DNA of 64,000 bases, from assembly GCA_965261085.1 (NCBI GenBank), contig OZ253442.1, forward strand, positions 1,120,001 to 1,184,000, read 5' to 3'. Within the stretch, counting starts at the first letter, position 1. Every line of letters starts with the position of its first letter. Below, piece after piece: positions 1,180 through 42,596 of this stretch. Source of the DNA: a bacterium. Its GTDB lineage: Bacteria; UBA8248. The notes beneath the pieces were generated by a model. It ran no database searches. It was not told the origin of the DNA and saw nothing but the letters and a program-made list of their open reading frames with translations. Both the position numbers and the translations under genes were made by a program.

Positions 1180-1770
1180 ATGTGGTTGCGCTCGCTGCTC
1201 TTAACGGCTGTCTTCGTCGTTTCGACCTCGGCGCTGGCGTGTATCGTGGGGTTTGCGCGCGACACGACGGGCCATGACTGGCATGCGACCGGCAAGCTCT
1301 TCCTGGCGGAAATCCTCTTAGCGCTCAACTTCGACCCCCGGGCGCAGGTTAAATACCGGACGAGGGAGGGCGCGGAAGTGACTCTCGCCCGCGGTGAGCT
1401 CGCGTTCAGCGGCGAGGCGCTGCTGGCGCGGGACCACCTCCTACGCACGGCGAGGCGAGCCGCCGAACTCGGCGCCTGGTGCGGCATCGGCGGTGCGCTG
1501 GTGTGCCTGGTGCTGGTCCGGCGGCAAGAGGACGAACGCGGCGAGCGGCGCACGTCGCCCGAGCCGCCCCGCAGGAGGCCGGGCTCAGGTGTATCGACGC
1601 CGGTGGCCACGGCGCCTGTTCGCGCACCGGCGGTGCGGCCGCCGGGACCGGATACTCCGCGGCCCCTGAATCCGCAGCCTGCCGGCTCGGACCGCAGGGA
1701 TACGGCCCCGGGCAGGGAAGACGCGGCGGCGCCCGCCCGCCGCGAACGCGGCTACGGGCGCTGGATCTGA
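1180..1770 (+). CDS. Mini-TraD: N-terminal membrane region of a coupling protein plus Pro-rich tail, no ATPase domain
   Basis: TTGHDWHATGKLFLAEILLALNFDPRAQVKYRTREG aligns by eye with TraD TTSAHEWRVVGLGVLAEAKLGLGYSPDSRQAYEWREG; stop overlaps traI start (TGATG); start uncertain (1120 or 1180). Confidence 0.65.
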   Translation: MWLRSLLLTAVFVVSTSALACIVGFARDTTGHDWHATGKLFLAEILLALNFDPRAQVKYRTREGAEVTLARGELAFSGEALLARDHLLRTARRAAELGAWCGIGGALVCLVLVRRQEDERGERRTSPEPPRRRPGSGVSTPVATAPVRAPAVRPPGPDTPRPLNPQPAGSDRRDTAPGREDAAAPARRERGYGRWI

Positions 1771-4751
1771 TGGTCGCCTCGATCGGCGCGGTGGCGAGCC
1801 CCTCGCAGGGCGCCGCCTACTACGAACGGGACGGCTACTACGCGAAGGACTCGGCCGAGCACCGGAGGCTGAGCGCCTGGGCCGGCAAGGGCGCCGAAGC
1901 CCTGGGCCTAGAGGGCGCAGTCGATCCGGACGTGTTCCGGGCGGTGCTCGAGGGCCATGTGCCGGACGGCTCCGGGCAACGCCTCGGCCGCAGGACCCGG
2001 GACGGAGAGATTCACCACCGGCCCGGGCGCGACCTCACCTTCTCGGCGCCCAAGTCCGTATCCCTCGTTGCGCTCATCGGCGGCGACGCGCGCATCGTCG
2101 ACGCCCACGAGCGCGCCGTCACGCGGGCGCTCGGGTGGTTCGAGCGAGGCACCGCCGAGACCCGGATGCGGGACCAGGCTACCGGACGGATGGTACGGGC
2201 CGGCGGCCAGAAGGCCGTGATCTCCACGTTCCGGCACGAGACGTCGCGGAACCTCGACCCGGCGCTGCATACCCACTCGGTCATCGCCAACATGTTGCTC
2301 GGCCCGGACGGCAAATGGAGGACGATGGCGAACGAGCGCCTCTATGCTTCCAAGATGCTGCTGGGCGCGCTCTACCGGAGCGAACTCGCAGGTGATCTGG
2401 CGAGGCTCGGGTACCGGATCGAGAAGACCCACGCCGACGGGCGATTCGAGATCGCGGGCGTCTCGCGCGAAATCGTCGAGGCGTTCTCCTCGCGCCGCGC
2501 CGAGATCGAAGCGGCGATGGAAAGCCGGGGCCACGGCGCCACGGCGGAGAACCAGCACCTCGCCCGGCGGGCGGCCCTGATGACCCGTGCGCACAAGCGC
2601 GACGTCGACAAGGAGGCGCTGCGCGGGATCTGGGCAAAACAGGCGTCAGAACTCGGCTTCGACGCGAAAGCGCTCGTCGCCTCGGCCATGGAGCGGGCGT
2701 CGCGCGGCCCGGAGAAAGAGAACTCACGGGAAGCGGGCAGGGACGCTCCGCCCGGGGCGGATCGGCAGGCGTACCTCATCGGGCATCCGTCGCGGACGGG
2801 ACCTGCGAAGGAGGCCGTCGAGTGGGCGATTTCGCATCTCTCGGAGCGTGATGCGGTGTTTGCGAGGAATGGACTGCTCGCCGCAGCGCTCGCCTACAGC
2901 CCCGGCGCCGCGTCCATCGGTGCCATCGAGCGGGTCGTCGAGGGTCTCACGCGCGAGGGCCGCCTGCACGATGCGCCCGTGCTCCCCGGATCGGGTCCGG
3001 GGCAGGCCGGAGGCGGGGGGCTCACCACCGATGTGGCCGTGGCCCGTGAGCGCGAGACGATCGCGCTGATGCGCGCGGGTGCTGCCCGGGGCAAGGCGGC
3101 GATGCGCGGCTGGATGGTGGATCGGCATCTGCGCAATGGGCCGCTCACGGCCGGGCAGAAACGGGCGGTGAAACTCATCCTTTCGGAGAAGGACCGGACC
3201 GTCGGCGTGCAGGGCTACGCCGGCGCCGGCAAGACCCGGATGCTCGATCGCGCGCGAACGATTGCGGGGAAGAAGGGCTGGCGCGTCGCGGGGCTCGCCC
3301 CCTCGGCGTCGGCGGTGCGCACGCTGGAGGCGGAATCGGGGATTAAGAGCGAGACCCTGCAGCGGTTCCTGGCGCGCAACGTCGGGCTGGCCGAAGGCCG
3401 CCTCACGAAAGGGGCCGCCAGAAAGATGCGCGCCGCCTTCGCGAAGACCGTGCTGGTGGTCGACGAGGGCTCGCTGGCGTCCACCGCCCAGGCCCGCGAC
3501 CTGCTCCGGATCGCGGGCGCCCTGCGCATACCGAAGCTCGTTCTCGTCGGGGACGCCAGGCAACTGGAAGCCGTCGACGCCGGCAAACCCTTCGCACAGC
3601 TCCAGGCAGCGGGCATGAAGACCGCGGTGATGGACGAGATCCTGCGCCAGCGCGACCCGGACCTCAAGGCCGCGGTCGAGGCGACTCTCGCGGGCGAGAT
3701 CGGGCGCGCATTTCAAAAACTGGGAGACAACGTCGCTGAAGTAAACCCCAAAAACATCGCGGGCGCCGTGGCGGCAAGGTGGCTGAAACTCTCCCCCGAC
3801 ATGCGCGAGCGCACCGGGGTGATGTCGCCTGGCCATGAACTGCGCGAGGCGATCAACGCCCACATCCGCGAACGCCTGGTCCGCGAGGGCCGCATCGCGG
3901 GTCCTGCGCTCAAGACGCGGAGGCTGGTTTCCAGGGGCTACACGAACGCCGAGAAGGCGTTAGCGGCCAACTACGCGCCCGGCGACGTGGTCGCCTTCCA
4001 CCGGTACTACAAGCGGATCGGGGTCGAAAAGGGCGAGGAGCGGCGCGTCATGGGCGTCGGTCGCGAGCGCGGAACCGTCCGGCTCGAAGGCCCTGAGGGC
4101 TCGAGCGTGGACTGGAAGCCGGCCCGGATCGGCGGGCGGCGGGGCGGGACCGAGGTCTACCGGGCCGAAACCATCGAGCTTCGCGCCGGCGACCGGGTGC
4201 GCTGGACCCGGAACGACAAGGGGCTGGGACTCGTGAACAGCGCCACCGCGGAGGTTTCAGGGGTACGCAACGGGCGGGTGACGTTCATGCTGGAGGAAGG
4301 CCGCAAGCTCGTCCTCACCCGGGGCGACCCGCAACTGCGCCATCTCGATCGCGCCTGGGCCTCGACCGTGCACGCCTTTCAGGGGCGCACGGTGGACAAC
4401 GTCATCGCCGCGATGGAGGCGAACCACCCTCACCTGACCACGGCGAAAGCGTTTTACGTCGAGATATCGCGCGCCCGCGATAGGGCCGAACTCGTCCCTG
4501 ACGACGCGAAGGCGCTCAGGGAACGCCTCGAAACCGTCACCGGCGAGCGCATCTCCGCACTCGAGGGCATTGGTGAATCCGTTCGTCCGGAGCCTGAACT
4601 CGACGTAAAGGCGCCTCTCGAACGCGAAATGCCGGAGCGGGAGCTGGCCGATTCCTCTTCCCCGGGCATGAAAACCGGACGAGAAATGCCGCGCACGAAG
4701 GCGCCCGAACCCGATCGCGGGAAGCGGATCGAGATGGACTTGGGGCTCTGA
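1770..4751 (+). CDS. traI: MOBF relaxase-helicase (TrwC/TraI type), copy 1
   Basis: YYERDGYY tyrosines, DLTFSAPKSVS, HETSRNLDPALHTH, GYAGAGKT Walker A, VVDE, STVHAFQG; start at MVASIG. Confidence 0.95.
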   Translation: MVASIGAVASPSQGAAYYERDGYYAKDSAEHRRLSAWAGKGAEALGLEGAVDPDVFRAVLEGHVPDGSGQRLGRRTRDGEIHHRPGRDLTFSAPKSVSLVALIGGDARIVDAHERAVTRALGWFERGTAETRMRDQATGRMVRAGGQKAVISTFRHETSRNLDPALHTHSVIANMLLGPDGKWRTMANERLYASKMLLGALYRSELAGDLARLGYRIEKTHADGRFEIAGVSREIVEAFSSRRAEIEAAMESRGHGATAENQHLARRAALMTRAHKRDVDKEALRGIWAKQASELGFDAKALVASAMERASRGPEKENSREAGRDAPPGADRQAYLIGHPSRTGPAKEAVEWAISHLSERDAVFARNGLLAAALAYSPGAASIGAIERVVEGLTREGRLHDAPVLPGSGPGQAGGGGLTTDVAVARERETIALMRAGAARGKAAMRGWMVDRHLRNGPLTAGQKRAVKLILSEKDRTVGVQGYAGAGKTRMLDRARTIAGKKGWRVAGLAPSASAVRTLEAESGIKSETLQRFLARNVGLAEGRLTKGAARKMRAAFAKTVLVVDEGSLASTAQARDLLRIAGALRIPKLVLVGDARQLEAVDAGKPFAQLQAAGMKTAVMDEILRQRDPDLKAAVEATLAGEIGRAFQKLGDNVAEVNPKNIAGAVAARWLKLSPDMRERTGVMSPGHELREAINAHIRERLVREGRIAGPALKTRRLVSRGYTNAEKALAANYAPGDVVAFHRYYKRIGVEKGEERRVMGVGRERGTVRLEGPEGSSVDWKPARIGGRRGGTEVYRAETIELRAGDRVRWTRNDKGLGLVNSATAEVSGVRNGRVTFMLEEGRKLVLTRGDPQLRHLDRAWASTVHAFQGRTVDNVIAAMEANHPHLTTAKAFYVEISRARDRAELVPDDAKALRERLETVTGERISALEGIGESVRPEPELDVKAPLEREMPERELADSSSPGMKTGREMPRTKAPEPDRGKRIEMDLGL

Positions 4752-4830
4752 ACGCGGCCCGACCGGGCCTGATTCCCACATTCCCTCGAAAAATTCGTAG
4801 CCGATGAACCGGCCAGCGGAACCAACGCAG

Positions 4831-5000
4831 GAGTTACACTCAGATCTTGTGTATGAGTTGAATTGAAGAAGGCAGCGCATCCTGCTGAAACGGGTTTGCC
4901 AAAAGCCTGGTCATTCAGCATACAGGAGATACGCTACCATGAGAAAAGATATGACGATTCCCTTCAGGAATACAGCCTTGCGGGACGAATTGAGCGAATC
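4831..5000 (+). mobile_element. IS256-family left-end remnant (terminal repeat plus first transposase codons)
   Basis: GAGTTACACTCAGATCTTGTGTATG...ATGAGAAAAGAT closely matches 28475-28645. Confidence 0.75.
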
Positions 5001-5745: not shown

Positions 5746-5800
5746 CTTGTATTCGAAAAATCAAAGCCATCAAGCTGTGAGTTTCTTGTACTCCCAGGGG

Positions 5801-5850
5801 GAGTTATCCTCAGGTCTTGTGTATGGGCTGAATTGAAGAAGGTGGCGCAT
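5801..5850 (+). mobile_element. Second short IS256 left-end remnant
   Basis: GAGTTATCCTCAGGTCTTGTGTATGGGCTGAATTGAAGAAGGTGGCGCAT matches 4831 and 28475. Confidence 0.7.
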
Positions 5851-5870
5851 ACCTGAGTCACCCTGTGCGT

Positions 5871-6257
5871 TCACGCCGGGCCTTCGTCCATGGTCTCGGC
5901 CATCGTCCTGCGGGCCGCGGCAATGAGGTTTTCGAGCTCTTTCCCGCGCCCGGCGTCGAGCAATCGTCCCCGATCCAGGGTCGCCATCATGTAGACCATG
6001 CGGTAGACGGCCTCGATGAGGGCGGCGTGTCCGGACGACAAGGTAACCGCTGGAGGCTCACCGAGCCGCTCCTCGGCGGCGGCGAGCGCGCCGGAGCGGA
6101 CGAGTTCGCCGGCCGCAATGCCGTGCAGCGCGGCGGCCCGCTCAACTAGACTCCACTCCGAACCCGAGAAGCGGACCGAGTGCGGCGCTCGCGGGTCGCT
6201 CGGGTTTTCCGCTAATTTTTTGCCCTTTCCGGGCTGATTCGGATCGTTTCGCGTCAT
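5871..6257 (-). CDS. Ribbon-helix-helix-like DNA-binding protein (possible relaxosome accessory), paralog of 36407-36778
   Basis: PHSVRFSGSEWSLVERAAALHGIAAGELVRSGALAAA strand-helix-helix pattern. Confidence 0.65.
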   Translation of the reverse strand: MTRNDPNQPGKGKKLAENPSDPRAPHSVRFSGSEWSLVERAAALHGIAAGELVRSGALAAAEERLGEPPAVTLSSGHAALIEAVYRMVYMMATLDRGRLLDAGRGKELENLIAAARRTMAETMDEGPA

Positions 6258-6473
6258 CTTTTTCGCTTCCTCAGGACAAGATCGGGCAACGAAACAGACC
6301 GTATCGACCGCCGATGCCGGTTCCCGACACGGCTCGTTTCAGGCGAAACCCAAGCATATCCGGAGCCGTCTACGCTTGATTCAACGTCCCGTGTTCAAGA
6401 CCTTGCAGCCAATTGCGAGAGCGTGCTCCGCCCCGATGCGGCCCCGGCGCACCGCGAAAAGGCCGTCACCGGG

Positions 6474-6612
6474 AGCATACGAACGTATTACGGACCGTAA
6501 CACATCGTGTTACGAAGCGCCACCAATTGCGACAGGCCCGGTATCCGTGCGCGACATGCGCAACCATGCGCCCTCAGGGATGAGAAAGGGTGTGTATGCT
6601 CTGAGCATACAC
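6474..6612. promoter_or_regulatory. GTATGCT/AGCATAC motif cluster, candidate RHH operator or oriT
   Basis: Perfect inverted repeat GTGTATGCT-CTG-AGCATACAC at 6592-6612; same motif at 20823 and 36252-36311. Confidence 0.45.
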
Positions 6613-7001
6613 TCGATCCGCCATAAATCTGACGCCCCGTGTCGCCGACAGGAGACGGGATAGCAGCCCGGTCGTCGTATGCCGGACCCCTGCAGCCCGC
6701 TGCGTTCCGGTGTGATAACAGGAGCCGCCGAAGGGCGTCCAATTGACCTAATCCGAGGGACAGACGATGGGGGAATCGACGCCGGAGAAGATGGCGAGCG
6801 GGAGCCGCCGCGGCGCCTGAGCGGTTGGAGACTCGGTGCAAGAGGGTGTGAGAGCGCTGAAGCTTGCGCCTGGATTCACAAGCGGAGGGCGAACAGGGCG
6901 CTGTAGCTTGCGCTTCTTATCACAAGCAGACGGACGACACGGGAGGCGACGAGCCGCGCCGCCACCGGGCGGGGTGGCGACGCGACTCGTGTGTGTTCGC
7001 C

Positions 7002-7955
7002 TCAAGCCGCGACGCGCTTGACGGGTATGCCGAGGCTTTGGGCTTTGTCGACGAGGTTGTCCGTGATGCCCGAACCCGGGAACGCGATCACGCCCTTGGG
7101 GAGGAGTGCCAGGAGTTCGTCGTTGCGCCTGAAGGGAGCGGCCCGTCCGTGCGCATCCCAGTCGGGCTTGCACACGACTTGGTGGACGCCGTTTCGCTCG
7201 GCCCATCCCGCCGCTATCTTCTCGGCGCCCGGGCCGCCGCCGTGGACGAGAACGACGTCGGCGTACTTGGCCTTGACCTTGTCGAGATGGCCGATGATTT
7301 TGCCTGCGTCGTTCGCCTCCTTGCCTCCCGCGACGGCGACGAGGGTTCCCTGGGGCAAGTGCGCGGTGTTCTCGCGGTCCTTTCTGGCTCTTTGAAAGTC
7401 GCGCGCGTCGATCATGGCGGAGGTGAGCTTGCCGGTCTGGGAGACGTGGGAGCCTCGCCGTGGCCGCCATACCTCGCCGGTCTCGATGCGGTAGGCCTCT
7501 GCGGCCGTGTCGCGCAGTCCTTCGAAGGCGTCGCGGCGGGCGGAGAGATTTTGAGCGCGGTCGGTCTTGAGTTCGAGTTCGCGCGAGCGGATCTCGGAGC
7601 CGTCCTGCTCGCGCTGTAGTTCGCGGATGCCGGGGATGAGTTTGTCGGCGGCGCGGTCGAGGCGCTGTGTCTGCGCGTCGATGGTGTTGACGAAGCCCCA
7701 GAGGAGGTTTCTTCGCTCATCCGCAAGCTGCGTGCCGTCGGGCGCTGCCTCGGCGAGCAGGTGGAAGGCTTTAAGGACGGCGGCGGTCGCCTCGTGCTCG
7801 TCCCACACGGGGCGGTTGTCGAACTCATCCGGCCCGGGCGTTGCGCCGAAGAGGGCGGCCTGCTCGCAGACCATGGCGGTGAAGGATTCGTTCTGGGCTT
7901 CGTGTTCCGTGTGCTCGTTCATGTTCATCTCCTTGTGGTCGTGTGTAGCGGTCAT
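7002..7955 (-). CDS. DUF2493 (YspA-related SLOG domain) protein, copy 1
   Basis: VVLVHGGGPGAEKIAAGWA...PDWDAHGRAAPFRRND...VIAFPGSGITDNLVDKA. Confidence 0.85.
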   Translation of the reverse strand: MTATHDHKEMNMNEHTEHEAQNESFTAMVCEQAALFGATPGPDEFDNRPVWDEHEATAAVLKAFHLLAEAAPDGTQLADERRNLLWGFVNTIDAQTQRLDRAADKLIPGIRELQREQDGSEIRSRELELKTDRAQNLSARRDAFEGLRDTAAEAYRIETGEVWRPRRGSHVSQTGKLTSAMIDARDFQRARKDRENTAHLPQGTLVAVAGGKEANDAGKIIGHLDKVKAKYADVVLVHGGGPGAEKIAAGWAERNGVHQVVCKPDWDAHGRAAPFRRNDELLALLPKGVIAFPGSGITDNLVDKAQSLGIPVKRVAA

Positions 7956-7976
7956 CGTTGACTCCTTTCGTAGTCC

Positions 7977-8348
7977 TCAAGCGAGGGGATGGTTGTATTG
8001 GGGCAGCGCGTAGCCGAGATCGTCCCGCTTCACTTCTTTGGGCATCTCGTCGAGATACCTGGCTGCCCATTCAGCGGCGCGCGCGAGGACGTCGCCGTGG
8101 CACGGGAGGGGCCGGCAGTGGCAGCCGAGTTCGCAGCCGTGCAGGTCGGCGAGTTCGTGGAGATTCACCTCCTCCTGCCGGATTTTTTCCCACAGCCATC
8201 GCCGGAATTTTTCGATCACGTCGTCGCGGTCGCCGTCCTGGCCGATGCGGAAGGGATTTCCCCACTTCGTCATGCGGTCGATCCTCACCAGCAAGCCACT
8301 GTCGAGTTCATCGACATAGGTGTTCAGGTTCACCACGGTGGTTTCCAT
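7977..8348 (-). CDS. DUF4326 domain protein, copy 1
   Basis: IDRMTKWGNPFRIGQDGDRDDVIEKFRRWL...LGCHCRPLPCHGDVL. Confidence 0.88.
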   Translation of the reverse strand: METTVVNLNTYVDELDSGLLVRIDRMTKWGNPFRIGQDGDRDDVIEKFRRWLWEKIRQEEVNLHELADLHGCELGCHCRPLPCHGDVLARAAEWAARYLDEMPKEVKRDDLGYALPQYNHPLA

Positions 8349-8852
8349 GCCTTTCTCCTTTCCAGAGAGTTAACGGATGCGCTTCTTAGCGTCCCATTTT
8401 CAGCACGTAAGGGCGCCGGTCGGTGTTTCCGGCGCCCGTAGGCGGGCGAATCAAGGGCTCGTCATTTTCCGGGGGGTTCCCGAAAAACACGGGTCATCGT
8501 TTTTTGGGGGGCACCGGCAAATGATGGCCGCTTGCGGCCACCCTTTATTCGCTCGGCGTTCGTGCTAAAATGAGGACGCTAAGAGAGAGACATTAGTATC
8601 GCCACCGGGATACAAGAGTTTTTGGTTGTTTCACGATGAAGGCGAAGCTCATCGGGAAACGATCTCTCATGCTGCGGAAAGGGTCATTTCGGGCCGTTTT
8701 TTCCGGCCCGAAATTCCCGCAGCGGGGGGTAGACCGAGCCACTGTCTTGAATATGGAATGATTGCAGGCGCCTGCGGATCTTCCGTGAACATGGTTTATC
8801 GTTCGCGGAACCGGAGATTTCCCGGGGGTTCCCGGTAGATGAGAGGGCCGGC
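8349..8852. promoter_or_regulatory. Multi-hairpin noncoding element, Frpo/ssi-like ssDNA promoter candidate, copy 1
   Basis: Long stem 8384-8407/8561-8584 with TGcTAAAAT in the 3' arm; nested hairpins; compensatory changes versus 18493-19027. Confidence 0.6.
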
Positions 8853-8904
8853 AGGGCGGGAAAGGCGAAGGGCTTCGGCGGCGGACTCCCTCTGGATAAC
8901 GAGC

Positions 8905-8938
8905 AAAAAAACAGGCCGACACCGAAGCGCCGGCCCGT
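8905..8938 (-). terminator. Intrinsic terminator after ssb
   Basis: GGCCGGCGC-TTCG-GTGTCGGCC then T-run on the minus strand; paralogous to 17216. Confidence 0.65.
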
Positions 8939-8965
8939 TGTGAGACCCAAAACACAAACCCTTGC

Positions 8966-9403
8966 CTAGAACGGAATATCTTCGCCGACCACGCCTGCAG
9001 GCGCCATCGTCTCGGGGTGCGCGCCGACTCCGTTGCCATTGCCGTTCCCGTTCACCTTGTCGAGGAATTGCACGCGCCCGCCCGGCGCGAGTAATATCTC
9101 GGTCGAGAACCGATCCGAGTCTTCCTCGTCCTTCTTCCAGCGGCGGGTCTGGAGCTTGCCCGCCACGTAGACCAGGCGGCCCTTCTTCGCGTGCCGCTCG
9201 AACATATCCACCAACCCGGGCTGGAAAGTCACGACCCGGTGCCACTCGGTTTTGTCCACCCGATCGCCGGATTGCTTGTCGACGTAGCCCTCGTCGGTGG
9301 CGATCGATAGGTTGGCGACGCGTCCCCCGCTCGCGAGATGGTTGATGGTGACGTCGGCGCCTAAGCGCCCGATCAGTTCCGCTCTGTTGAGTCCGAATGC
9401 CAT
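8966..9403 (-). CDS. ssb: Single-stranded DNA-binding protein
   Basis: LNRAELIGRLGAD...TEWHRVV...GRLVYVAGKLQTRRW; C-terminal EDIPF. Confidence 0.95.
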   Translation of the reverse strand: MAFGLNRAELIGRLGADVTINHLASGGRVANLSIATDEGYVDKQSGDRVDKTEWHRVVTFQPGLVDMFERHAKKGRLVYVAGKLQTRRWKKDEEDSDRFSTEILLAPGGRVQFLDKVNGNGNGNGVGAHPETMAPAGVVGEDIPF

Positions 9404-9484
9404 GGTAGTACTCCTTCGTGGTGTGAGTGTGAAAAAAATGATGGGAGGGAGAGAGCCTTTCTCTCCCCGGCCCCCCGGTTCGCC

Positions 9485-9616
9485 CTAAACGCTACAGAAC
9501 TCCACCTCGCCGTCCGCCTCGTCGCGCAGCTTGCGGATCGTGTAGGCGTCGAGTCCTAGTTCTGCGAGCAGTTCGTCCGCGGTGGGAACGTCGACGTCGT
9601 AGTCGTTCTCGTACAT
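9485..9616 (-). CDS. Small acidic hypothetical protein (43 aa)
   Basis: GAGGAGG RBS before MYENDYDVDVPTADELLAELGLDAYTIRKLRDEADGEVEFCSV. Confidence 0.6.
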   Translation of the reverse strand: MYENDYDVDVPTADELLAELGLDAYTIRKLRDEADGEVEFCSV

Positions 9617-10277
9617 GGCCAGGCCTCCTCTCGGGTTGTCGCACCCGGCGTCGGGACCGGGAGACCGTCTCCCTCTCCCTACCGGGCATTTGCCCGGCTC
9701 CCCGCTTCTCTCCACCTCTCCCCGGGGGGATCACGTCCGGTGAGGGGCCGTCCACGGAGCGTGAACGGCCTCGGCCCCCGCCGGGTCGAGCGGGAGACGG
9801 ACGGGAACGGAAGCCGCAACGGGTGCGCCCCGGTTCGGGGTTCGGATGGATGAGGCATGGGGATAGGGGGACGTATCGAGTGGTGGAATTTCGGGGCGGC
9901 GACGTTCTTGTCCTCGCCGGTGGGGTTGGTGGTCGGCACTCTCGCGCTGTCGGCACCGGGAAGATGGAGACTATGGAAGCCGGGTTGGCTTCGCGCCGCC
10001 TGGCGGGCCGGGATTGCGCTCGGCGCCTTCGTCGGCGGTGGCGAACTCGGCTAGACGACCGTACGGGCGTGCGCAGCCCCCCGGCCCGGAGATCTAGGTG
10101 CTTCACGCGGAGGAGGCGAGTCCGGCAGGCGCCCCCCCCCCGGCGGCCGAAAGGGCGGCGGTACGTACCCTCGACGGCGGGCCGGCTGCGCAGCAGGGCG
10201 GCGCCACCCCCCTGGCCGGGGTCTGCCCCCGCCGGAGGGGGGACGGCGGCACGTGCCCGGAGAACCGGCGAGAGCAC

Positions 10278-11417: not shown

Positions 11418-11949
11418 CGCGGGCCTCCTTGCTGTGGGTGGTCGGGAAGGCGGAGAACGTCCTCTCCCGGACGCCCCGCCGCCGCCCCCTCACGGCCAAG
11501 CTCGGCCTCTTGGTGGCGCGGGAGTCGAGTCTGTGGACATCGGCTCGGAGGAGTGGCACAGTGAACTGGGGTCCGACCCAGCGTTTTGGACGGCGTCAGG
11601 AAGGCCGGAAAGGCAGCATTCCATGCCGCTCACGGTAGGCATCGATCGAGGAGTAAAAGTCAGTGCTCGAAGTTCTGGAACGAATGCGTAAGCTTCCCCC
11701 TAATCCGGGCCATTGCATGTGAGGTTTTCCTAGAGATGTTCCGGCCATGCCTTCATGTTCCGGGCCGAGGGAAACGCCGGGAATTATATTCTTAACTTGA
11801 CAGGGAAGGGTAAACCGAGGGGGTCCCAGTTTGAAATTTGACGCTTCAATCGCGATTTACTGATTTACAAAAACGAGGCGAATTTCAGGGGCAATCAAAG
11901 AGCGTATTGCATTCAAGGCATTCTATCGTAGATAGAGGCTCCGCGAAGC

Positions 11950-13794
11950 TTGCTACGAGGCTTCACTCCAACATTCCTTCTCCGACACGCTAGGCCACCC
12001 TTTGAGGCGTTCCCAATGAAGCTTACCGTAACAAACCCGGAGGTTCTGGACACGCTCGTGGACATTCCAGTCGGCCTATGGCCCATTCGCCGCCCTAGGG
12101 ACTCGCGAATGATCCTCGTTGTGAAGACCTCGAGAGAGGCGGCTCAAACGGCCAGACTACGCAAAGGATTCCGCTTCTATTTGGTTCCTGTCCATGCCGG
12201 CAGCGTGGCTACGTATGGTCTGGTGACAGCCTTCTTCGACGACAACGATGAACCGCTCGTCATCCAGACACCACTCTTCCACGAGGAGATCACCCGAGAT
12301 TTCGTTTTGCTGCTCTCGTCGGACGCCTTCTATGTCCATTTCTTCGACGAGCACGATCGGGAACTGCTCGGCTTCCGAGCTGAGAACCCGGATGCTCATC
12401 GCTTCCGCGTACTCTCGAATACGATTCGTTTCGCGTCGCCAACCCTTGACCGAGCGCGCCAGGTCCTCGACGTGATGCAATCCCGGTTCGGCGCTCGCTC
12501 GCCGGCGGACGACGCCGCTGCGTTCACTATCCACCTGCGGGAGCGGCTGTTTCCCGACAGCCTGGAAGAAAACGTCGAAAACCCAGGCGATCTCAATGAG
12601 CCTGACATAGCCAACGCCCTGCATCGGTCGTTTGGGAGTGACAATGTCTTCGCGAACCCGATTCGCGCCGACAACGAACGAGAATTTGTAGACGTTCTCG
12701 TGGCAACGGACAAGACCCTCCTCCTGGTTCAGGCCAAGGATAGCCCAAGCGACGAGTCAGCACTGAACCGGAAGATCGATCGCAAGAAGACCACCGCTGC
12801 CCACCATGTAAGGAGGGCAACCCGCCAGTTGAAGGGATCAATCAATTACCTCCGATCTGGGGATCCCATTGAGATCTTTACCGAGAAGAAGAGCCGCGAA
12901 GTGTCCACGTCCGGCCGCGACGTCTTCGGACTCGTCATCGTCAAGGAGCTGTTCGACCCGGAGCGACCAACCTGCAGCCCACCTGTCCTTACCGTGTTCA
13001 ACGACACGGGCATTCCTTGCCTACTTCTGGACCATACAGAGTTTCAACAGTTAACCTTCTTCCGGACCACCGAGGAGAGCTTCGTAGGGGCGCTGAAGGA
13101 TATCTTCTCGGCCGCCTGCGCGCATAGCGTGTTCCCACCTAGCCGATTTGGCCTTCGTACGGGGAAGACGGTGGTGTACGATCCAACTGGAACAGGGAAC
13201 GCGCCAGACTCGACTACGCACGAACGGGTTCAAGTTGTCACGGAGGGCAGCTCCATCATTACCGCTCCCATATCGGGCGATTGGGTAACCGACGAGGTTG
13301 CTGGAATGGGGTTTCGGGAAGACTTGGGTGCCGACTGGCTTCGTGTGGTCGTAGACCGCTCGGAAGTGAAAGCCCTCGACGTGTCCGGTACGGCGGCAAC
13401 CCTGTCGCGTGTGCTTGCTGACAGGGACGCCGTCGAACGGTATCGGGGGCGGGTAGACTTAGCCTTTTTCGGTTACTCCAACGACTCGCGAGAACTACGC
13501 GACATCCCGGAGGTACGGCGCTTCTGCTCCAAGCTGGACGACGCATTTCCCTATTGGTTCTACTTCCTTTCCACGGAGGGAGTGACCCTGGGGGTGATCG
13601 CGTGCTGCTTGTGTTCTGTCGCTCAGCTGAGGCCAGGGGTCGTCAGCTTTGGTCCTGACCTGCTCGAATTCATGACACGTCATTACGAAGCACTGAATTG
13701 GCTATTCGATAACTACTCTCTGGACGAGAGGCTCAATGTCGAGATAAGCGGCAACGTCGCCGAGTATTTCGGCAAGACCGAGTCAATCCAATAG
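11950..13794 (+). CDS. Multidomain protein: PD-(D/E)XK-like nuclease plus C-terminal DUF1817/CRR6-like domain
   Basis: EFVDVLVATDKTLLLVQAKDS; FFGYSNDSRELRDIPEVRRFCSKLDDAFPYWFYFL; true start possibly ATG 12016. Confidence 0.6.
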   Translation: MLRGFTPTFLLRHARPPFEAFPMKLTVTNPEVLDTLVDIPVGLWPIRRPRDSRMILVVKTSREAAQTARLRKGFRFYLVPVHAGSVATYGLVTAFFDDNDEPLVIQTPLFHEEITRDFVLLLSSDAFYVHFFDEHDRELLGFRAENPDAHRFRVLSNTIRFASPTLDRARQVLDVMQSRFGARSPADDAAAFTIHLRERLFPDSLEENVENPGDLNEPDIANALHRSFGSDNVFANPIRADNEREFVDVLVATDKTLLLVQAKDSPSDESALNRKIDRKKTTAAHHVRRATRQLKGSINYLRSGDPIEIFTEKKSREVSTSGRDVFGLVIVKELFDPERPTCSPPVLTVFNDTGIPCLLLDHTEFQQLTFFRTTEESFVGALKDIFSAACAHSVFPPSRFGLRTGKTVVYDPTGTGNAPDSTTHERVQVVTEGSSIITAPISGDWVTDEVAGMGFREDLGADWLRVVVDRSEVKALDVSGTAATLSRVLADRDAVERYRGRVDLAFFGYSNDSRELRDIPEVRRFCSKLDDAFPYWFYFLSTEGVTLGVIACCLCSVAQLRPGVVSFGPDLLEFMTRHYEALNWLFDNYSLDERLNVEISGNVAEYFGKTESIQ

Positions 13795-14561: not shown

Positions 14562-15716
14562 TTATGTGACCACGGGATGATCCTCGCCATTCCCCCAGTC
14601 GATCCAGCTGAGGGCATCAGTTGAGAATCCCTGATTCCATACGCGTGTTTTGGCGGGATCTAGGAACGGAAAACACTTGAGGGCATGCTGCCTCGAATCA
14701 GCCAGTGTGATCAGTTGAATAGGCACGCGCCGATGCTCCCAGGAGGTGATATCGCCGCCCAGCTGGTACTGAACGAAGAGTCGGCCCAGCGTCTCATATG
14801 CGTAGCTGTCATATGGAGGCATCGAGTAGCCGATCACGACAATGGACGAATAGATGTCCTGGCCCGATGAAAGATTTTCCCACAGATCCAGGATGGGGTC
14901 GTATCCAAGCAGCTTGTCGTAAGCTGGTGGGAGAATGAAGGGAACGACTTGTGACACAACTCTCCCCTCTATGGGGAAGTGCGCTGCGTGGTTGGGGACG
15001 CGGAAGACTCGTGGGAGGATGTGATTCCCGAACGCCACCTCCGTCTGTCCTCGTGAAAGAGGCTCTGACGGAACTGTCGGAGCGGGGCCGAAGATCGGAT
15101 CCCGGTTGGGCACGTCGTGACCTTGCTCGGCGTGCCAGCGCACGGCAGCGTCAAGGTAGTAACGGTCATACCAGTCAATCGACCCGTGGAGCTTGAGGAG
15201 GTCAACAAATCTTGGTTCGAATCCACCCGGGTCCGTTATGAGCCACCACTCAGGACTAAGGGTGTACGGCTTGCCAGCGTCATCGAGTGCTTGCTCCAAG
15301 AGGGTGTCGTAATTGAACGTAAGCACGACGTCGCGGGGGCAAAGCCGCTGAGCAAAATCCCGGTACAGCTTCGGGGTGTCGCTGGGCGTCGCTTGAATGA
15401 GTATCCGCTGGATCGCTCGCCGCGCAGCGACTATTGACCGGCTGCCGTGGTCGAAGTACTCGTCGGAACCTATGAGGCGGAGGTAGTGCTTCCGGAGGCT
15501 ATATGCGAGTACGCGCTCCAGATCGATCGACTCACCTGGATACAGCGAAGACCATTCTCCGATCTCTTGTTCCAGGGTACCGTCCCAGCCGGAGAGCTGA
15601 AACGAGCCGCGGACATCCTCTCGGACGCGTTCAAGGAGACCATTCCCCAGAGGCAGGCCCCCGGGGGCGGAGAAGCCAGCCCCGAGTACGAATAGACGGT
15701 GAGGGGGTACGTTCAC
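14562..15716 (-). CDS. SIR2-like (SIR2_2) protein
   Basis: FVLGAGFS, LTFNYDTLLE, LKLHGSIDW, VVIGYS motifs. Confidence 0.88.
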   Translation of the reverse strand: MNVPPHRLFVLGAGFSAPGGLPLGNGLLERVREDVRGSFQLSGWDGTLEQEIGEWSSLYPGESIDLERVLAYSLRKHYLRLIGSDEYFDHGSRSIVAARRAIQRILIQATPSDTPKLYRDFAQRLCPRDVVLTFNYDTLLEQALDDAGKPYTLSPEWWLITDPGGFEPRFVDLLKLHGSIDWYDRYYLDAAVRWHAEQGHDVPNRDPIFGPAPTVPSEPLSRGQTEVAFGNHILPRVFRVPNHAAHFPIEGRVVSQVVPFILPPAYDKLLGYDPILDLWENLSSGQDIYSSIVVIGYSMPPYDSYAYETLGRLFVQYQLGGDITSWEHRRVPIQLITLADSRQHALKCFPFLDPAKTRVWNQGFSTDALSWIDWGNGEDHPVVT

Positions 15717-18492: not shown

Positions 18493-19027
18493 GCCGGCCC
18501 CTCTCATCTACCGGGAACACCCAGGAAATCTCCGATTCCGTGAACGATAAACCATGTTCACGGAAAATCGGCATGAACGCTACAATCACCGCATACCCTG
18601 GATAGTGGTTCGGTCTACCCCCCGCTGCGGGAATTTTGGGCTGGAAAAAACGGCCCAAAATGACCCTATCCGCAGCATGAAAGATTGCTTCACGATGAGC
18701 TTCGCTTTCATCGTGAAACAACCAGAAGCTCTTATGTCCCGGTGGCGAAACCACCCTCTCTCTCTTAGCGTCCTCATTTTAGCACGAACGGCGAGCAATA
18801 AAGGGTGGCCGCAAGCGGCCATCATTTTCCGGTACCCCCCAAAAAACGTCGTGCGGCAAAAAACGAAAGCGCCGCTCTATGGAGCGTGTTTTTTGGGAAC
18901 CCCCCGGAAAATGACGAGCCCTTGATTCGCTCGCCTACGGGCACCGGGAACACCGCCCGATGCCCTTACGTGCTGAAAATGAGGCGCTAAGAAGCACATC
19001 CGTTAATCCTCTAGAAAGGAGAAAGGC
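18493..19027. promoter_or_regulatory. Multi-hairpin noncoding element, copy 2
   Basis: Stem 18763-18786/18969-18992 with the same nested hairpins as 8349-8852. Confidence 0.6.
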
Positions 19028-19402
19028 ATGGAAACCGCCGTTGTGAACTTGAGCGACTATCGGCATGACAACTTCGGAAGTGGCTGTCTCATCAAAATTG
19101 ACAGGACGACGAAGTGGGGAAATCCCTACCGGATCGGCCAGGATGGCGATCGCGCCGCCGTGATTGAAAAATACCGACGATGGCTCTGGAGAAATATCCA
19201 GCAGGAGGAGATCAACCTCTACGAACTCGCCGACCTGCATGGCTGCGAGCTCGGTTGCCACTGCCATCCCCTCCCGTGTCACGGCGATGTCCTCGCACGC
19301 GCCGCCGCGTGGGCAGCCGACTACCTCGGCGACATGCCGAAAGAAGTGAAGCGAGACGATCTTGGCTACGCTCTGCCCCAATACGACTATCCCCTCGCTT
19401 GA
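19028..19402 (+). CDS. DUF4326 domain protein, copy 2
   Basis: KWGNPY...LGCHCHPLPCHGDVL; AGGAG RBS. Confidence 0.88.
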   Translation: METAVVNLSDYRHDNFGSGCLIKIDRTTKWGNPYRIGQDGDRAAVIEKYRRWLWRNIQQEEINLYELADLHGCELGCHCHPLPCHGDVLARAAAWAADYLGDMPKEVKRDDLGYALPQYDYPLA

Positions 19403-19423: not shown

Positions 19424-20383
19424 ATGACTGCCACCGCGACACACGATCACAAGGAGAGCATCATGCACGAGCACACAGAGCACGAAGCACAGAATGAATC
19501 CTTCACCGCCATGGTCTGCGAGCAGGCGCAACTCTTCGGCGCGACTCCGGGGCCCGATGAATTCGACTCCCGCGTCGTATGGGACGAGAAGGAAGCCACC
19601 TCCGCCGTCATCAAGGCCTTCCACCTCCTCGCACAGGCCGCACCCGACGGCACACAGCTCGCCGACGAACGAGCGAACCTCCTGTGGGGCTTCGTCAACA
19701 CCCTCGACGCACAGACACAGCGCCTCGACCGCGCCGCCGACAGGCTCATCCCCGGTATCCGTGAACTGCAGCGCGAACAGGACGGCTCCGAGATCCGCTC
19801 CCGCGAACTCGAACTCAAGACCGACCGGGCGCAAAATCTCTCCAACCGCCGAGACGCCTTCGAAGGACTGCGCGACACGGCCGCCGAGGCTTATCGCGTA
19901 GAGACCGGCGAGGTATGGCGACCCCGGCGAGGCTCCCACGTCTCGCAGACCGGCAAGCTCACATCGGCCATGATCGACGCGCGCGACTTCCAGCGGGCGA
20001 GAAAGGACCGCGAGAACACCGCGCATCTTCCGCAGGGGACACTCGTGGCCGTCGCGGGCGGCAAGGAGGCGAACGACGCAAGCGCCATCATCGGCCACCT
20101 CGACAAGCTCAAGGCCAAGTACACAGACGTCGTCCTCGTCCACGGCGGCGGTCCCGGCGCCGAGAAGATAGCGGCAGGATGGGCGGAGCGCAACGGCGTC
20201 CACCAGGTCGTCTGCAAGCCCGACTGGGACGCACACGGACGGGCCGCTCCCTTCAGGCGCAACGATGAACTCCTCGCTCTGCTCCCCAAGGGCGTCATCG
20301 CCTTCCCCGGCAGCGGCATCACCGACAACCTCGTCGACAAGGCCAACAGGCTCGGCATCCCCGTCCAGCGCGTCGCCGCATAG
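19424..20383 (+). CDS. DUF2493 (SLOG) protein, copy 2
   Basis: Nearly identical protein to 7002-7955. Confidence 0.85.
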   Translation: MTATATHDHKESIMHEHTEHEAQNESFTAMVCEQAQLFGATPGPDEFDSRVVWDEKEATSAVIKAFHLLAQAAPDGTQLADERANLLWGFVNTLDAQTQRLDRAADRLIPGIRELQREQDGSEIRSRELELKTDRAQNLSNRRDAFEGLRDTAAEAYRVETGEVWRPRRGSHVSQTGKLTSAMIDARDFQRARKDRENTAHLPQGTLVAVAGGKEANDASAIIGHLDKLKAKYTDVVLVHGGGPGAEKIAAGWAERNGVHQVVCKPDWDAHGRAAPFRRNDELLALLPKGVIAFPGSGITDNLVDKANRLGIPVQRVAA

Positions 20384-21055
20384 GACACTCGACCCGGCGG
20401 GTCGTGTCGCCACCCCGGCGGCGCGGCCCGCTCTTCTTCTTTGCACACCCCGCCGCACCGCTGTACGGACCCTCGTACAGAACTCCCCACAATGGCGTCG
20501 GCCCCGCTGTACGAACCTCCGTGCACACCTCCCCGCATTGCTCCCCTCGCCTCCGTCCGCTCAATCGCCGCGGCGGCTCCCGACCGCCTCTCTCACCGGC
20601 TTCGATTCCCCCATCGTTCGTTCCCCGTATCTGGTCCTTTTGACGCCCTTCGGCGCTTCGGTTCTCACACCCCACGCATCTGAAGATGCCTGCCCTCCAT
20701 GCGCGCGCCTGGCATACAGCGTTCTGCGCAAACGACGACAATGACCGCCTCCTTCATACTGGAAAAGCAATACCAATCTGGTAGCACGTGAACCCTTTGA
20801 AATCACTGCACTTAAAAATCGCGTATGCTATTTGTAATACGGTGTAATACGAGGATTTCCTGAAGGATACCAAATTGGTAGTACACAGGCCCGCGCTGCG
20901 CTATGATGGATTCCGATTTGGTATTGCGACTTCCGGCATCGATTCGAGACCTTCCAGGTTCGCGACGAATGTGTTCGGTGAAAGCAAACGAGAATTTCCC
21001 GAGCGTTTCGGGACCGGAATCGAGGAAAATCTTAACGAAAGGAGTGACGAAACGA

Positions 21056-28234: not shown

Positions 28235-28474
28235 AATTTTCTTTCTCCTGAATTCCTTACTATCATATGCTTTCTTATCCCAAGAATCGAACGGGCCGAG
28301 GGTTTCCATTAAGAGAAAGTCGTGTCCTTGAACTTGTGCATCCTGACAGGAGCATCCAGTTTGTCCCCTAAGAACGACCACCGGGATTATCCCCCTCTTC
28401 TCGTCCCTGAGAGGGAAAAGCGGCTCTCGAAAGCGAGGCCGCCGATTTGCTTGGGGGTGCAGGCGCAGGGTCTG

Positions 28475-29090
28475 GAGATACGCTCAGATCTTGTGTATGG
28501 GCTGAATTGAAGAAGGCGGCGCATCCTGCTGAAATAGGGTTGTCAGAAGCCCGGTCATTCAGCACACAGGAGATGCGCCACCATGAGAGAAGATACGACG
28601 ATTCCCTTCAGGAATCCAGCCTTACGGGACGAGTTGAGCGAACTGTTGCGCGAAGGCGCGCAACGAATCATCCGCCGGGCCGTGGAAGCGGAGTTGGAGG
28701 CTTTTCTGGAAGGGTATGCGACCGATCATGACTCGCAAGGTCGACGCGCGGTAGTCCGCAACGGATACCTGCCGTCGCGGGAGGTGTTGACGGGGGTCGG
28801 CCCGGTGCGTGTCCAGGTTCCGCGGACACGGGACAGGTCGGGCGCGGGCCGGTGCTTCCGCTCGGAGCTTTTGCCGCCGTATTTGAAGAAGACGAGGCGT
28901 GTGGAGGCGGTGATTCTCTGATGTATCTGTAAGGGATATCGACGAATGACTTAGGTGAGGCGCTGAGAGCGCTGTTCGGCGAATCGGTGAGGGGATTGTC
29001 CCCGGCGAGCGTTGCGTGGCTCAAGTGCGGCTGGGAGCGCGAGTACGCGCAGTGGCCGAGCGCGACTGGGGAGGCGAGGTGTTCGTGTAT
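28475..29090 (+). mobile_element. IS256-family 5' part, degenerate transposase ending at the intron
   Basis: RDELSELLREGAQRII..EAEL..VVRNGYLP.REVLTGVGPV.V.VPR.RDR; stops and frameshifts after 28921. Confidence 0.85.
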
Positions 29091-31020
29091 GTGCGCCAGG
29101 CTAACTGGCGGAAGGGCAGCCGGTGGAAGTCCGGCAGGATGGAAAGGCCAACCACCCCCTCCACCGCGAGCCGTGCGTCGTCACCCGCGAGGGTGTCGGC
29201 GAAGCGTCGGTAGCGGCGCGTGCGTGCGGGGCGATTGAGCACCGAAAGCACTCTACAACTGGAGCGCCGAGACTCTATACACGGTCGAAGGCAGCACTCC
29301 GCGGGCCGCCATGGTGAGGACCGCGGAGGCTCCACGGTGTCGAAGAACCCATGCACGCACGTACGCCCTCCACCGGGACCTGGGAGGTCTCCATGTCACC
29401 CCGCCGTCGTGGCGGGGTCGCTGAGGGAAGGAGGAATCCGTAGCCGATGACGAACGGCATGGAGAAGTCAGACCCGGCCGTAGTAGCCGAGAAGCCGACG
29501 AACAAGGGGACGCGAGTCCCGGCGGAGTCGGTGGAGTCAAGGGCCGGGCCCGAGGGGAATCCGGGAAGCCAAAGCACGCGCCGGACACAGGGCCGGGAGA
29601 GCGTGTCACAGGCGGCTGAGCGGATACGGCAATTCGTTCGACGGGAACCACGGGAACGTTTGACGGCGCTTCTCCACCACGTCACGCTCGATGCGCTGCG
29701 CTGGGCGTTCTTCGAGTTGAAGAGAAATGTTGCGGCAGGCGCGGACGGGGTGACGTGGCGGATGTACGCGGAAGGGCTGGAAGGCCGACTGGCCGACCTG
29801 CACGAGCGCGTGCAATCGGGGGCGTACCGGGCGACGCCGTCACGGCGGGTGAACATCCCCAAGCCCGACGGCGGGACACGACCGCTCGGCGTCGCGGCCA
29901 TCGAGGACAAGATAGTCCAGAAGGCCGTGACGGAGACAATCCTGACGCCGATATACGAGGCGGAGTTCCTGGGGTTCAGCTACGGGTTCCGGCCCGGGCG
30001 CGGGGCGCATGATGCGCTCGACGCGCTCGCAGTCGGGATAACACGGCGCAAAATCGACTGGGTGGTGGACATTGACATCCGCGCATTCTTCGACACGGTG
30101 TCGAGGGAGTGGCTGGTGCGCTTCTGTAAGCACCGCATCGGGGACAAGCGGGTCATCAGGCTCATCATCAAGTGGTTGAGGGCCGGTGTCATGGAGGCTG
30201 GAGAGTGGCGGGACGACCTGCGGGGAACGCCGCAAGGCTCGGTGGCATCACCGATTCTGGCGAACGTCTACCTGCACTACGTCCTCGACCTGTGGCTCCA
30301 GAAGAAGTGGCGCAGCCGCGAGGCCAAAGGCGACGCAATCATCGTTCGCTACGCCGACGACTTCGTGGTGGGATTTCAGCACAAGGAGGACGCGGAGCGG
30401 TTCCTGAGCGCCGTGAAGGAGCGGTTCGGAAGCTTCGGACTGGAGATACATCCCGACAAGACCCGGCTTATTGAGTTCGGGCGGTTTGCCATGGAGAATC
30501 GACGGCAGCGTGGTCAAGGTAGACCGGAGACCTTCGACTTCCTGGGTTTCACGCACTACTGCGCGAAAACTAGAGAAGGAGGGCGATTCCTGTTGGGGCG
30601 CAAGCCGGTCGCGAAACGGATGAGGCGCACCCTGAAGCGGATAAAAGAAGAGATACGCAGACGCATGCACCACAACATCAAGGATACGGCGAGATGGCTG
30701 GGCAGAGTGGTCGACGGATGGCTGAACTATTTTGCCGTCCCGACCAGCTTTCGGTATCTCCGGCAATTCGTCGCACGACTCATGCGGCTGTGGCTCCGCG
30801 CCCTGCGACGAAGGTCGCAAAAGGACCGCTATACGTGGGCAAGACTTGCAAAACTGGCCAGGACGTACTGGCCGAAGCTGAACGTCCGACACCCGTGGCC
30901 GAGCCAACGATTTACCGTCAGCGCTTTGAGGGGCGCAACCCAAGGGAGGAGCCGGATGCCTTAGCGGGCACGTCCGGATCTGTGCGGGGGGCGCCGGGTA
31001 ACCGGCGTTCCTACCGCGAT
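29091..31020 (+). mobile_element. Group II intron
   Basis: 5' GTGCG at 29091; domain V GAGCCGGATGCC..GGCACGTCCGGATC, domain VI and ..CGAT 3' end at 31020. Confidence 0.88.
29447..30964 (+). CDS. ltrA: Group II intron reverse transcriptase/maturase, no evident endonuclease domain
   Basis: IPKPDGGTRPLG, SYGFRPGR, GTPQGS..SPILANVYLH, RYADDF, FDFLGF. Confidence 0.95.
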   Translation: MTNGMEKSDPAVVAEKPTNKGTRVPAESVESRAGPEGNPGSQSTRRTQGRESVSQAAERIRQFVRREPRERLTALLHHVTLDALRWAFFELKRNVAAGADGVTWRMYAEGLEGRLADLHERVQSGAYRATPSRRVNIPKPDGGTRPLGVAAIEDKIVQKAVTETILTPIYEAEFLGFSYGFRPGRGAHDALDALAVGITRRKIDWVVDIDIRAFFDTVSREWLVRFCKHRIGDKRVIRLIIKWLRAGVMEAGEWRDDLRGTPQGSVASPILANVYLHYVLDLWLQKKWRSREAKGDAIIVRYADDFVVGFQHKEDAERFLSAVKERFGSFGLEIHPDKTRLIEFGRFAMENRRQRGQGRPETFDFLGFTHYCAKTREGGRFLLGRKPVAKRMRRTLKRIKEEIRRRMHHNIKDTARWLGRVVDGWLNYFAVPTSFRYLRQFVARLMRLWLRALRRRSQKDRYTWARLAKLARTYWPKLNVRHPWPSQRFTVSALRGATQGRSRMP

Positions 31021-42421: not shown

Positions 42422-42596
42422 CCGGTCCTCCTGTTCAGGATTGTGTGGATAGTGGTGCGCCCGTGCGCACTGTGGCGGGGATTCCGTCACGGGGACTGGT
42501 CCTCCTTCGGCCGCTACGAGTTCATTGATGAGGACGGCGACCGCTTCGACCCGGACGGGCCGCTACGCCCGTCCCCGTAGAAGGGACCTCCGCGCC

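Follow-up and report, generated by a model that had tools for sequence, protein, structure and literature searches.

A hairpin in single-stranded DNA (ssDNA) can mimic a promoter for host RNA polymerase, as do the minus-strand origins of filamentous phages and the single-strand origins (sso) of rolling-circle plasmids, both of which yield short primers, not mRNAs. Here, we consider a non-coding block that stands ahead of a DUF4326 gene and a YAcAr/SLOG-domain gene in a bacterium of an uncultured lineage. It occupies positions 8349-8852 of what we call the window, that is, the whole stretch of 64,000 nucleotides (nt) that was analyzed (positions 1120001-1184000 of a single 4.27-Mb contig). The closest described systems come from conjugation. 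Frpo and related elements are described as large hairpins, formed by the transferred strand, in which a -35 and a -10 box are rebuilt; they drive the leading genes until conversion to duplex silences them (PMC9849209, PMC11541004, PMC12672017). Two more classes, without Frpo homology, have come from hairpin mining combined with 5' rapid amplification of cDNA ends (5' RACE), and plasmid F has homologues of both class 2 and class 3 (PMC12672017). Experimentally, ssDNA promoters have been shown for only a few IncF/IncI hairpins in Escherichia coli, and the wider surveys are mainly similarity-based (PMC11541004, PMC12672017).

The block at 8349-8852 (copy A) and its inverted counterpart at 18493-19027 (copy B) are conserved, strongly structured, and non-coding. 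We think it probable that the element is a new class of ssDNA promoter, carried by an integrative conjugative element with an F-type mating apparatus and a MOBF relaxase. It is unrelated in sequence to the known examples and lies in an integrative element of an uncultured lineage.

Hairpin, promoter boxes, and alleles

Along the - strand, the gene order is SSB, an intrinsic terminator, the block, DUF4326, and YAcAr/SLOG, the + strand being the template of both downstream genes. The parts of the element are as follows.

8384-8584, + strand: branched hairpin on the template strand
8384-8407 with 8561-8584, + strand: outer stem, from the folds
8411-8437, + strand: side hairpin of 27 nt, on the 5' arm
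about 8441-8457 with 8541-8557, + strand: inner stem
about 8462-8526 and 8527-8540, + strand: two apical branches
8544-8549, + strand: -35-like box TTTATT (3/6 matches), 16 nt upstream of the -10
8563-8571, + strand: extended -10 TGCTAAAAT, hexamer 8566-8571, on the 3' arm
8349-8383, - strand: short DUF4326 leader, containing AAGGAG (8360-8355) and followed by the ATG (8348)
8585-8852, + (template) strand: conserved hairpin array (four to five hairpins), beyond the 3' end of the promoter hairpin
18493-19027, - strand: copy B, inverted relative to copy A; its template strand is the - strand
18784-18776, - strand: extended -10 TGCTAAAAT of copy B

Much of this had been proposed in a sequence-only reading of the locus, and its description of the structure was borne out. 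The block of about 500 bp is indeed conserved in both inverted copies, which align at 88% mean column identity; in the window's self-BLAST, 6709-8852 matches 20671-18493 at 81.9% identity. The outer stem pairs on the + strand as claimed, interrupted by two single-base bulges, C8401 and A8573, which are conserved and flank the extended -10. The side hairpin and both boxes lie where they had been placed. The AATCAA noted on the template arm is found at 8449-8454 (TTGATT on the other strand), opposite TTTATT, through one T/C mismatch that is always present in type A, the window's allele; the inner stem thereby sets AATCAAGGG (8449-8457) opposite CCCTTTATT (8541-8549). Folded as ssDNA, the + strand of 8349-8860 reaches -132.7 kcal/mol (z -8.65; none of 100 shuffles as good) and the - strand -115.7 kcal/mol (z -6.79). 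The apical part of copy B holds an extra small hairpin, a 30-nt insertion at 18840-18880 that is seen in about half of the type-A copies and is missing from copy A.

Homologues were sought in 42 genomes of the taxonomic family. The 107 loci examined gave 101 elements, 62 of them distinct; one copy of 1986 nt, presumably bearing an insertion, was set aside and excluded from all alignments, leaving 61, and locus L062 was excluded from the hairpin set as its anchor was not found. The element family numbers at least 61 distinct copies and was found only in this genus: matches occur in 14 of the 42 genomes (our own counted), that is, in 13 of the 22 other genomes of the genus and in none of the 19 genomes across eight other genera. 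There are four copies in this genome and up to 16 matches in one genome of the genus. So many DUF4326 leaders per 4-Mb genome imply that a chromosome holds many copies or remnants of one F-type/MOBF integrative-element family. A blastn search of 72,556 plasmid records gave no match to the element, nor does any Rfam family match it at gathering score; the window's only Rfam matches, a group II intron and a tRNA, lie elsewhere.

The block stands before DUF4326 in every copy. In an alignment of 48 copies, the outer stem and flanks are common to all, whereas two sequences without relation to each other fill the inner 130 nt, and by these the 61 distinct copies divide into 34 of type A and 27 of type B. 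A third unrelated allele, type C, lies directly before SLOG genes without DUF4326. Its five copies are at two other places in this genome (loci L113 and L114, at G000:C1:3736378-3736792 on the - strand and 3764527-3764923 on the + strand) and in three other genomes (G017, G018, and G022). Each of the three alleles forms a long hairpin, and the distance to a start codon is 36-45 nt.

The promoter boxes are as constant as the stem that holds them. TGCTAAAAT is present in 60 of the 61 distinct copies and TGCTAGAAT in the other, always at the same place on the 3' arm of the template strand; TGNTAAAAT occurs 45 times, both strands included, in 8.5 million genome positions. The -10 hexamer ends 13 nt from the stem base in types A and B, and 11-12 nt from it in our reading of the type-C alignment. 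Upstream of it, all 27 type-B copies have TTGACC at 15 nt, and all 34 type-A copies have a box at 15-16 nt: TTTATT stands at 16 nt in 24 of them and at 15 nt in 9, and the remaining copy has TTTTTT. The five type-C copies all read TTGGCG-N16-TGn-(G/C)A(A/T/C)GAT, again on the template 3' arm.

As in the described ssDNA promoters, then, a large, stable, imperfect hairpin of the predicted transferred strand rebuilds a -35 and a -10 at promoter spacing, facing the downstream gene. The 3' arm, read 5' to 3', runs to the stem base, and therefore the paired 5' arm is the template. That arm continues into the complement of the DUF4326 leader, with 36 nt from stem base to ATG. The predicted start lies opposite about 8389-8391, 6-8 nt past the -10; an mRNA begun there would have AAGGAG in a leader some 40 nt long. 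A rule-based scan of 7900-9500 found no duplex promoter of sigma-70 type.

Covariation was assessed on the 34 distinct type-A hairpins in template-strand orientation. Their pairing is nearly complete (99.6% of 2547 cells), and 7 of 75 pairs have changed on both sides. The corresponding number is 3.0 +/- 0.8 in 500 shuffles, none of which attains 7, and 0-3 in slid controls. The two compensatory changes that had been noticed between copies A and B are real, and recur among homologues as G-C/A-T alternation (columns 40/58 and 41/57).

Wobble pairs and the folding strand

A one-sided change that keeps a G-T pair on one strand leaves an A-C mismatch on the other, and this comparison separates folding of the transferred DNA strand from folding of an mRNA without experiment. 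RNAalifold prefers G-U on whichever strand it is supplied with, and therefore only pairs predicted from both strands were counted. One-sided changes that keep G-T number 45 cells in 25 pairs on the template strand against 8 cells in 6 pairs on the sense strand, cell counts that overstate independent events in copies so related. Of these, type A has 31 cells (15 pairs) against 8 (6 pairs) and type B 14 cells (10 pairs) against none; type C has a further 4 cells against 1. The large hairpin alone shows 17 pair positions against 3, by our own split of the count table. At A3 columns 70/209, for example, 12 copies have G-C, 11 have A-T, 10 have the template-strand G-T, and a single copy has the sense-strand intermediate. 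This excess is not explained by general mutation bias: the sense strand of adjacent coding DNA has 157 C>T columns against 126 G>A, and the unpaired type-A columns have 21 against 19.

Folding energies lean the same way. Consensus energies, template then sense, are -183.0 and -163.4 for type A, -179.2 and -171.1 for type B, and -149.3 and -135.7 for type C, and folding with DNA parameters likewise favors the template strand, in four of four hairpins. The z-scores fail to separate the strands, and so fold statistics alone choose neither.

The strand counts bear most directly on the idea that the block is transcribed, as a long structured 5' leader of the DUF4326-SLOG mRNA (a riboregulator, for example), with transcription either starting at a promoter near 8852 or reading through from SSB. 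The sense RNA does fold strongly (-210.8 kcal/mol, z -6.79), and the block precedes DUF4326 in every case. In such an RNA, however, the one-sided changes would be A-C mismatches in 45 cells and G-U in only 8. In addition, no Rfam family matches, no sigma-70 promoter was found and a terminator lies just upstream, and the inner module is replaced by unrelated sequence in types B and C. We regard this explanation as highly improbable.

Another possibility is an ordinary duplex promoter. In that case, the extended -10 would act on the + strand to produce a non-coding RNA through 8585-8852, antisense to the region upstream of DUF4326, and the hairpin would be incidental or regulatory. TGCTAAAAT and a usable spacer are intact in duplex DNA and face a conserved, hairpin-rich block of 270 nt, within which the wobble changes also lean to the + strand (6 pair positions against 2). 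However, there is no terminator downstream on that strand, and three observations would go unexplained: the pairing of the promoter with a covarying partner arm, the strand bias of the large hairpin, which lies upstream of the start, and the position of the box 11-13 nt from the stem base in three unrelated alleles. This reading, too, seems improbable to us.

Predicted nick region and entry of the strand

The following features bear on whether the template strand is the one that is transferred.

6692-6714, + (template) strand: candidate nick region, hairpin GCAGC-CC-GCTGC and then GTTCCGGTGT↓G, the arrow marking the predicted nick at 6713/6714
20666-20689, - strand: nick-like region of copy B, hairpin GCATC-TTCA-GATGC and then GTGGGGTGT↓G
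1479-4751, + strand: MOBF (TrwC-type) relaxase-helicase, convergent with the cluster (Pfam TrwC, E 1.4e-81)
5871-6257, - strand: ribbon-helix-helix protein p128, candidate relaxosome accessory protein (weak DUF6290 match)
7002-7955, - strand: YAcAr/SLOG-domain gene, 317 amino acids (Pfam PF10686, E 7.7e-22)
7977-8348, - strand: DUF4326 gene, 123 amino acids (Pfam PF14216, E 4.6e-25)
8910-8939, - strand: intrinsic terminator of the SSB gene
8966-9403, - strand: SSB gene
19028-19402, + strand: second DUF4326 gene, after copy B
19424-20383, + strand: second SLOG gene, after copy B

The nick pattern has one match in the window against 0.02 expected, and was compared with TTTGCGTGGGGTGT↓GGTGC of F. 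It belongs to a conserved block between SLOG and the ribbon-helix-helix gene, in which 47 of 48 distinct copies have a hairpin followed by GT-N2-3-GGTGT-R on the template strand. The hairpin stems covary (GCAGC/GCTGC, GCATC/GATGC, GCACC/GGTGC). Twelve copies carry GTGGGGTGT, as F does, and many have GTCCGGTGT or GTTCCGGTGT in its place. Copy B shares thirteen identical bases, TGCGTGGGGTGTG, with F, and the homology of copies A and B stops within the nick motif, at 6709. The F site itself reads GCAAAAAC-TT-GTTTTTGC-GTGGGGTGT↓GGTGC, and lies on the strand that templates ssb and psiB, in the interval separating the leading genes from traM; an oligonucleotide table splits the F origin of transfer (oriT) at exactly that point, and TraI becomes joined to the 5' phosphate (PMC3074121).

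With an F-like nick motif on the template strand, the template is therefore, by analogy with F, the predicted transferred strand. At the sequence level, this would place the element in a leading region whose downstream genes are templated by the transferred strand, with the polarity seen in F. The site would likewise pass for a MOBF oriT, having a hairpin, some 9-10 nt that end in GGTGT at the predicted nick, and a TrwC/TraI-type relaxase in the same element. By the same analogy, SLOG and DUF4326 would enter the recipient first, with the hairpin about 1.7-1.9 kb behind the nick.

Other candidates for oriT were less satisfactory. Downstream of four relaxase genes, a search by conservation aligned only the gene ends, and 1.8 kb conserved upstream of relaxase genes was rejected, as it looks coding and its inverted repeats are unremarkable. 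A perfect 10-nt palindrome at 6592-6612 was dropped in favor of the motif at 6692-6714; it lies within 6258-6690, which is unmatched elsewhere in the genome and common to only 7-8 of 53 related loci. Close by, past the SLOG stop and after a GC-rich hairpin (6949-6990), 6830-6945 holds two tandem hairpin units GCTTGTGA-N-GCGCAAGC in the sense of the - strand. Most copies retain both units, which may serve as binding sites close to the nick region. On the side of copy B, the open reading frame 20404-20643 was rejected as a gene; its translation is low-complexity and Pro/Arg-rich, and it was therefore taken as non-coding.

From this arrangement, we infer the following course of events. The relaxase would nick the + strand at about 6713/6714 and pilot it 5' to 3' into the recipient, where the SLOG and DUF4326 templates would arrive first and the 200-nt segment 8384-8584 would trail the nick by about 1.7-1.9 kb. 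That segment would fold in vivo, its 3' arm providing a continuous non-template strand with the -35-like box, a spacer of 15-16 nt, and TGnTAAAAT. Host RNA polymerase would recognize these boxes, use the 5' arm as template, initiate a few pairs above the stem base, and exit along the single strand. The product would be a DUF4326-SLOG mRNA whose leader, about 40 nt long, includes a Shine-Dalgarno sequence; this RNA could possibly serve as a primer as well. Complementary-strand synthesis would then remove the hairpin and leave the operon without a recognizable sigma-70 promoter; the SSB terminator at 8910-8939 should shield it from upstream transcription.

The array at 8585-8852 may be a barrier to complementary-strand synthesis, which would meet it before the promoter hairpin; the model for this idea is ssp2 of F (bioRxiv 10.64898/2026.01.09.698686). 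The array has no role under a pure promoter model, a point in favor of another alternative, namely that the ssDNA signal is not mainly for expression at all. It could be a primer site, for RNA polymerase or a Toprim primase, or a barrier that times duplex conversion, with DUF4326-SLOG expressed from elsewhere. The structural and strand evidence applies to it equally, a DUF7146-Toprim gene belongs to the cluster, Frpo RNA can act as a primer for DNA synthesis, and F has a roadblock in ssp2 (bioRxiv 10.64898/2026.01.09.698686, PMC12672017). On the other hand, a primer made here would copy back only the 1.7-1.9 kb to the nick, a message from the predicted start would have a neat leader, some 40 nt long and with AAGGAG, no other promoter is recognizable for the operon, and all three alleles keep 36-45 nt to the start codon. 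We judge this alternative unlikely.

It is important to set out what weighs against an ssDNA promoter. Besides the relatedness of the copies and the strong fold of the sense RNA, already mentioned, mononucleotide shuffles give the sense strand the lower z-score (-9.6, template -8.3). Type B contributes no compensatory pairs, because it is too conserved. The type-A -35 is poor, at 3/6 matches; a three-way junction falls within the spacer on its template arm and may affect polymerase binding; and the sigma-70 consensus, assumed here for an uncultured host lineage, may not be the host's. Other intergenic regions of the cluster (9940-10277, 11418-11950, 9404-9484, and 6258-6736) are unstructured, with z between -2.7 and +1.0, and have no comparable template-strand box; F and pESBL have several such promoters, unlike this cluster with its single structured region. 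Finally, the boxes are contiguous on one arm and make the same promoter in duplex DNA, aimed away from DUF4326 into 8585-8852. The suggestion of the sequence-only reading, a promoter that appears to assemble only on ssDNA, must be amended on this last point: its Frpo-like character is supported by the template-strand G-T bias, the rebuilt alleles, and the F-like nick region, and the feature specific to ssDNA is the coupling of the promoter to the DUF4326 template.

We also put forward, tentatively, a wider proposal. The same device may have evolved at least three times from unrelated sequence: a transferred-strand hairpin of 200-230 nt that carries TTGnnn-N15-16-TGn-nAnnAT 11-13 nt above the stem base and is active only while single-stranded. 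The hairpin array might then stall complementary synthesis and prolong this window of activity, and DUF4326 and SLOG might be zygotically induced establishment or counter-defense factors. If this proposal is true, it would describe the first class of ssDNA promoter outside enterobacterial plasmids to be backed by covariation and strand bias. The 61 natural variants and three convergent alleles provide a simple architecture that can be searched for: the 3' arm bears an extended -10 at 11-13 nt above the stem base, with a start codon 36-45 nt away. DUF4326 and YAcAr/SLOG are common, uncharacterized leading-region genes of plasmids; as the genes predicted to be expressed first on entry, they become candidates for establishment or anti-defense functions.

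The gene cluster and its known counterparts

The window and the rest of the genome hold several elements with TraG_N, TraH, TraN, TraU, TraC, TraV, TraB, TraK, and TraE, that is, with F-type mating functions, and these also encode TrwC-type relaxases. The best plasmid matches of the relaxase at 1479-4751 are MobF relaxases. All of them have a cluster that comprises a ParB_N/strawberry-notch helicase, the Toprim gene, SSB, the hairpin block described here, DUF4326, and SLOG. This cluster is directed at a small ribbon-helix-helix gene with weak NikA-like matches and then at the 3' end of a convergent relaxase gene; copy B comes after a DUF7146-Toprim gene. The order of cluster, nick region, ribbon-helix-helix gene, and convergent relaxase holds in the window and in other elements of the genome, in one of which the junction of cluster, ribbon-helix-helix gene, and relaxase forms only upon circularization. 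The p128 gene is transcribed away from the nick region. Two homologues of p128, at 36443-36778 and at L112:19100-19444, share 37% identity with it and have NikA-like matches (E 2.8e-4 and 1.2e-4, respectively).

On other alphaproteobacterial conjugative plasmids, DUF4326 genes belong to co-oriented clusters whose other members are Toprim, DUF1419, methylase, strawberry-notch, or zincin-like genes, which fits a leading-region role. At distant DUF4326 loci, on plasmids of Bradyrhizobium, Roseomonas, and Aquibium, the spacer upstream of the gene is short and holds no comparable block.

Several further features of the window may be recorded. Between the two inverted clusters, the cargo includes a SIR2_2-domain protein (14562-15716, - strand, E 6.1e-08) that may be a defense gene. 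A group II intron (Rfam D1-D4 domain, 156.5 bits, 29126-29349; reverse transcriptase/maturase reading frame 29447-30964) adjoins a Mutator-family transposase fragment at 28583-28921. Two copies of one insertion-sequence end, at 4830-4998 and 5800-5855 between the relaxase and ribbon-helix-helix genes, are 89% identical to 28474-28642, the end beside the Mutator transposase. A stretch of about 180 nt (35920-36096) has more than 20 repeats across the genome, many of them beside S24-peptidase or HTH_17 regulator genes of conjugative elements, and the second conjugative element contains a direct repeat of 534 bp at 92% identity (41903-42436 and 52864-53397).

How, then, does the element compare with what is known? 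From filamentous-phage and sso hairpins, it would differ in its product. Like the F oriT (TraI, MOBF), the nick region has a hairpin that ends in TGC, then GTGGGGTGT and the predicted nick, all on the strand that templates the leading genes; TGCGTGGGGTGTG of copy B is identical in F, and a MOBF relaxase is encoded nearby. The hairpin sequences differ, and covary among copies, and the relaxase gene is convergent with the cluster here, whereas in F it lies behind the tra operon that starts at oriT.

Class 1 Frpo/ssi promoters (F, ColIb-P9/pESBL) resemble the element in their place in the leading region, upstream of early genes templated by the transferred strand, in their long imperfect hairpins, which are said to rebuild a -35 and a -10, and, as predicted for the element, in their silencing on conversion to duplex. 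The likeness to Frpo that had been proposed for the block therefore holds for position, structure, and boxes and does not extend to sequence: in a blastn comparison with the 14-kb leading region of F (54000-68000), the best match had E 0.25 over 16 nt. Box placement also seems to differ. In our folds, F Frpo2 is a hairpin of about 320 nt that begins about 46 nt from the ssb start codon, and its best pair of boxes, by our own scan, is on the 5' arm near the loop. The element has its boxes beside the stem base, on the 3' arm, and polymerase would thus run straight off the hairpin. The host is not an enterobacterium, the element is integrative, and type A is a three-way junction, in all of which it is unlike Frpo/ssi.

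The class 2 and class 3 promoters of pESBL and F (klcA/ardA, M.EcoGIX) have start sites mapped by 5' RACE, whereas the start given here is predicted from sequence; F has homologues of both classes, and the element matches nothing in the F leading region. These classes were detected without homology, as large hairpins ahead of leading operons, and their sequences are unrelated to Frpo (PMC12672017); the parallel in the element is its types A, B, and C, several unrelated alleles that keep one architecture.

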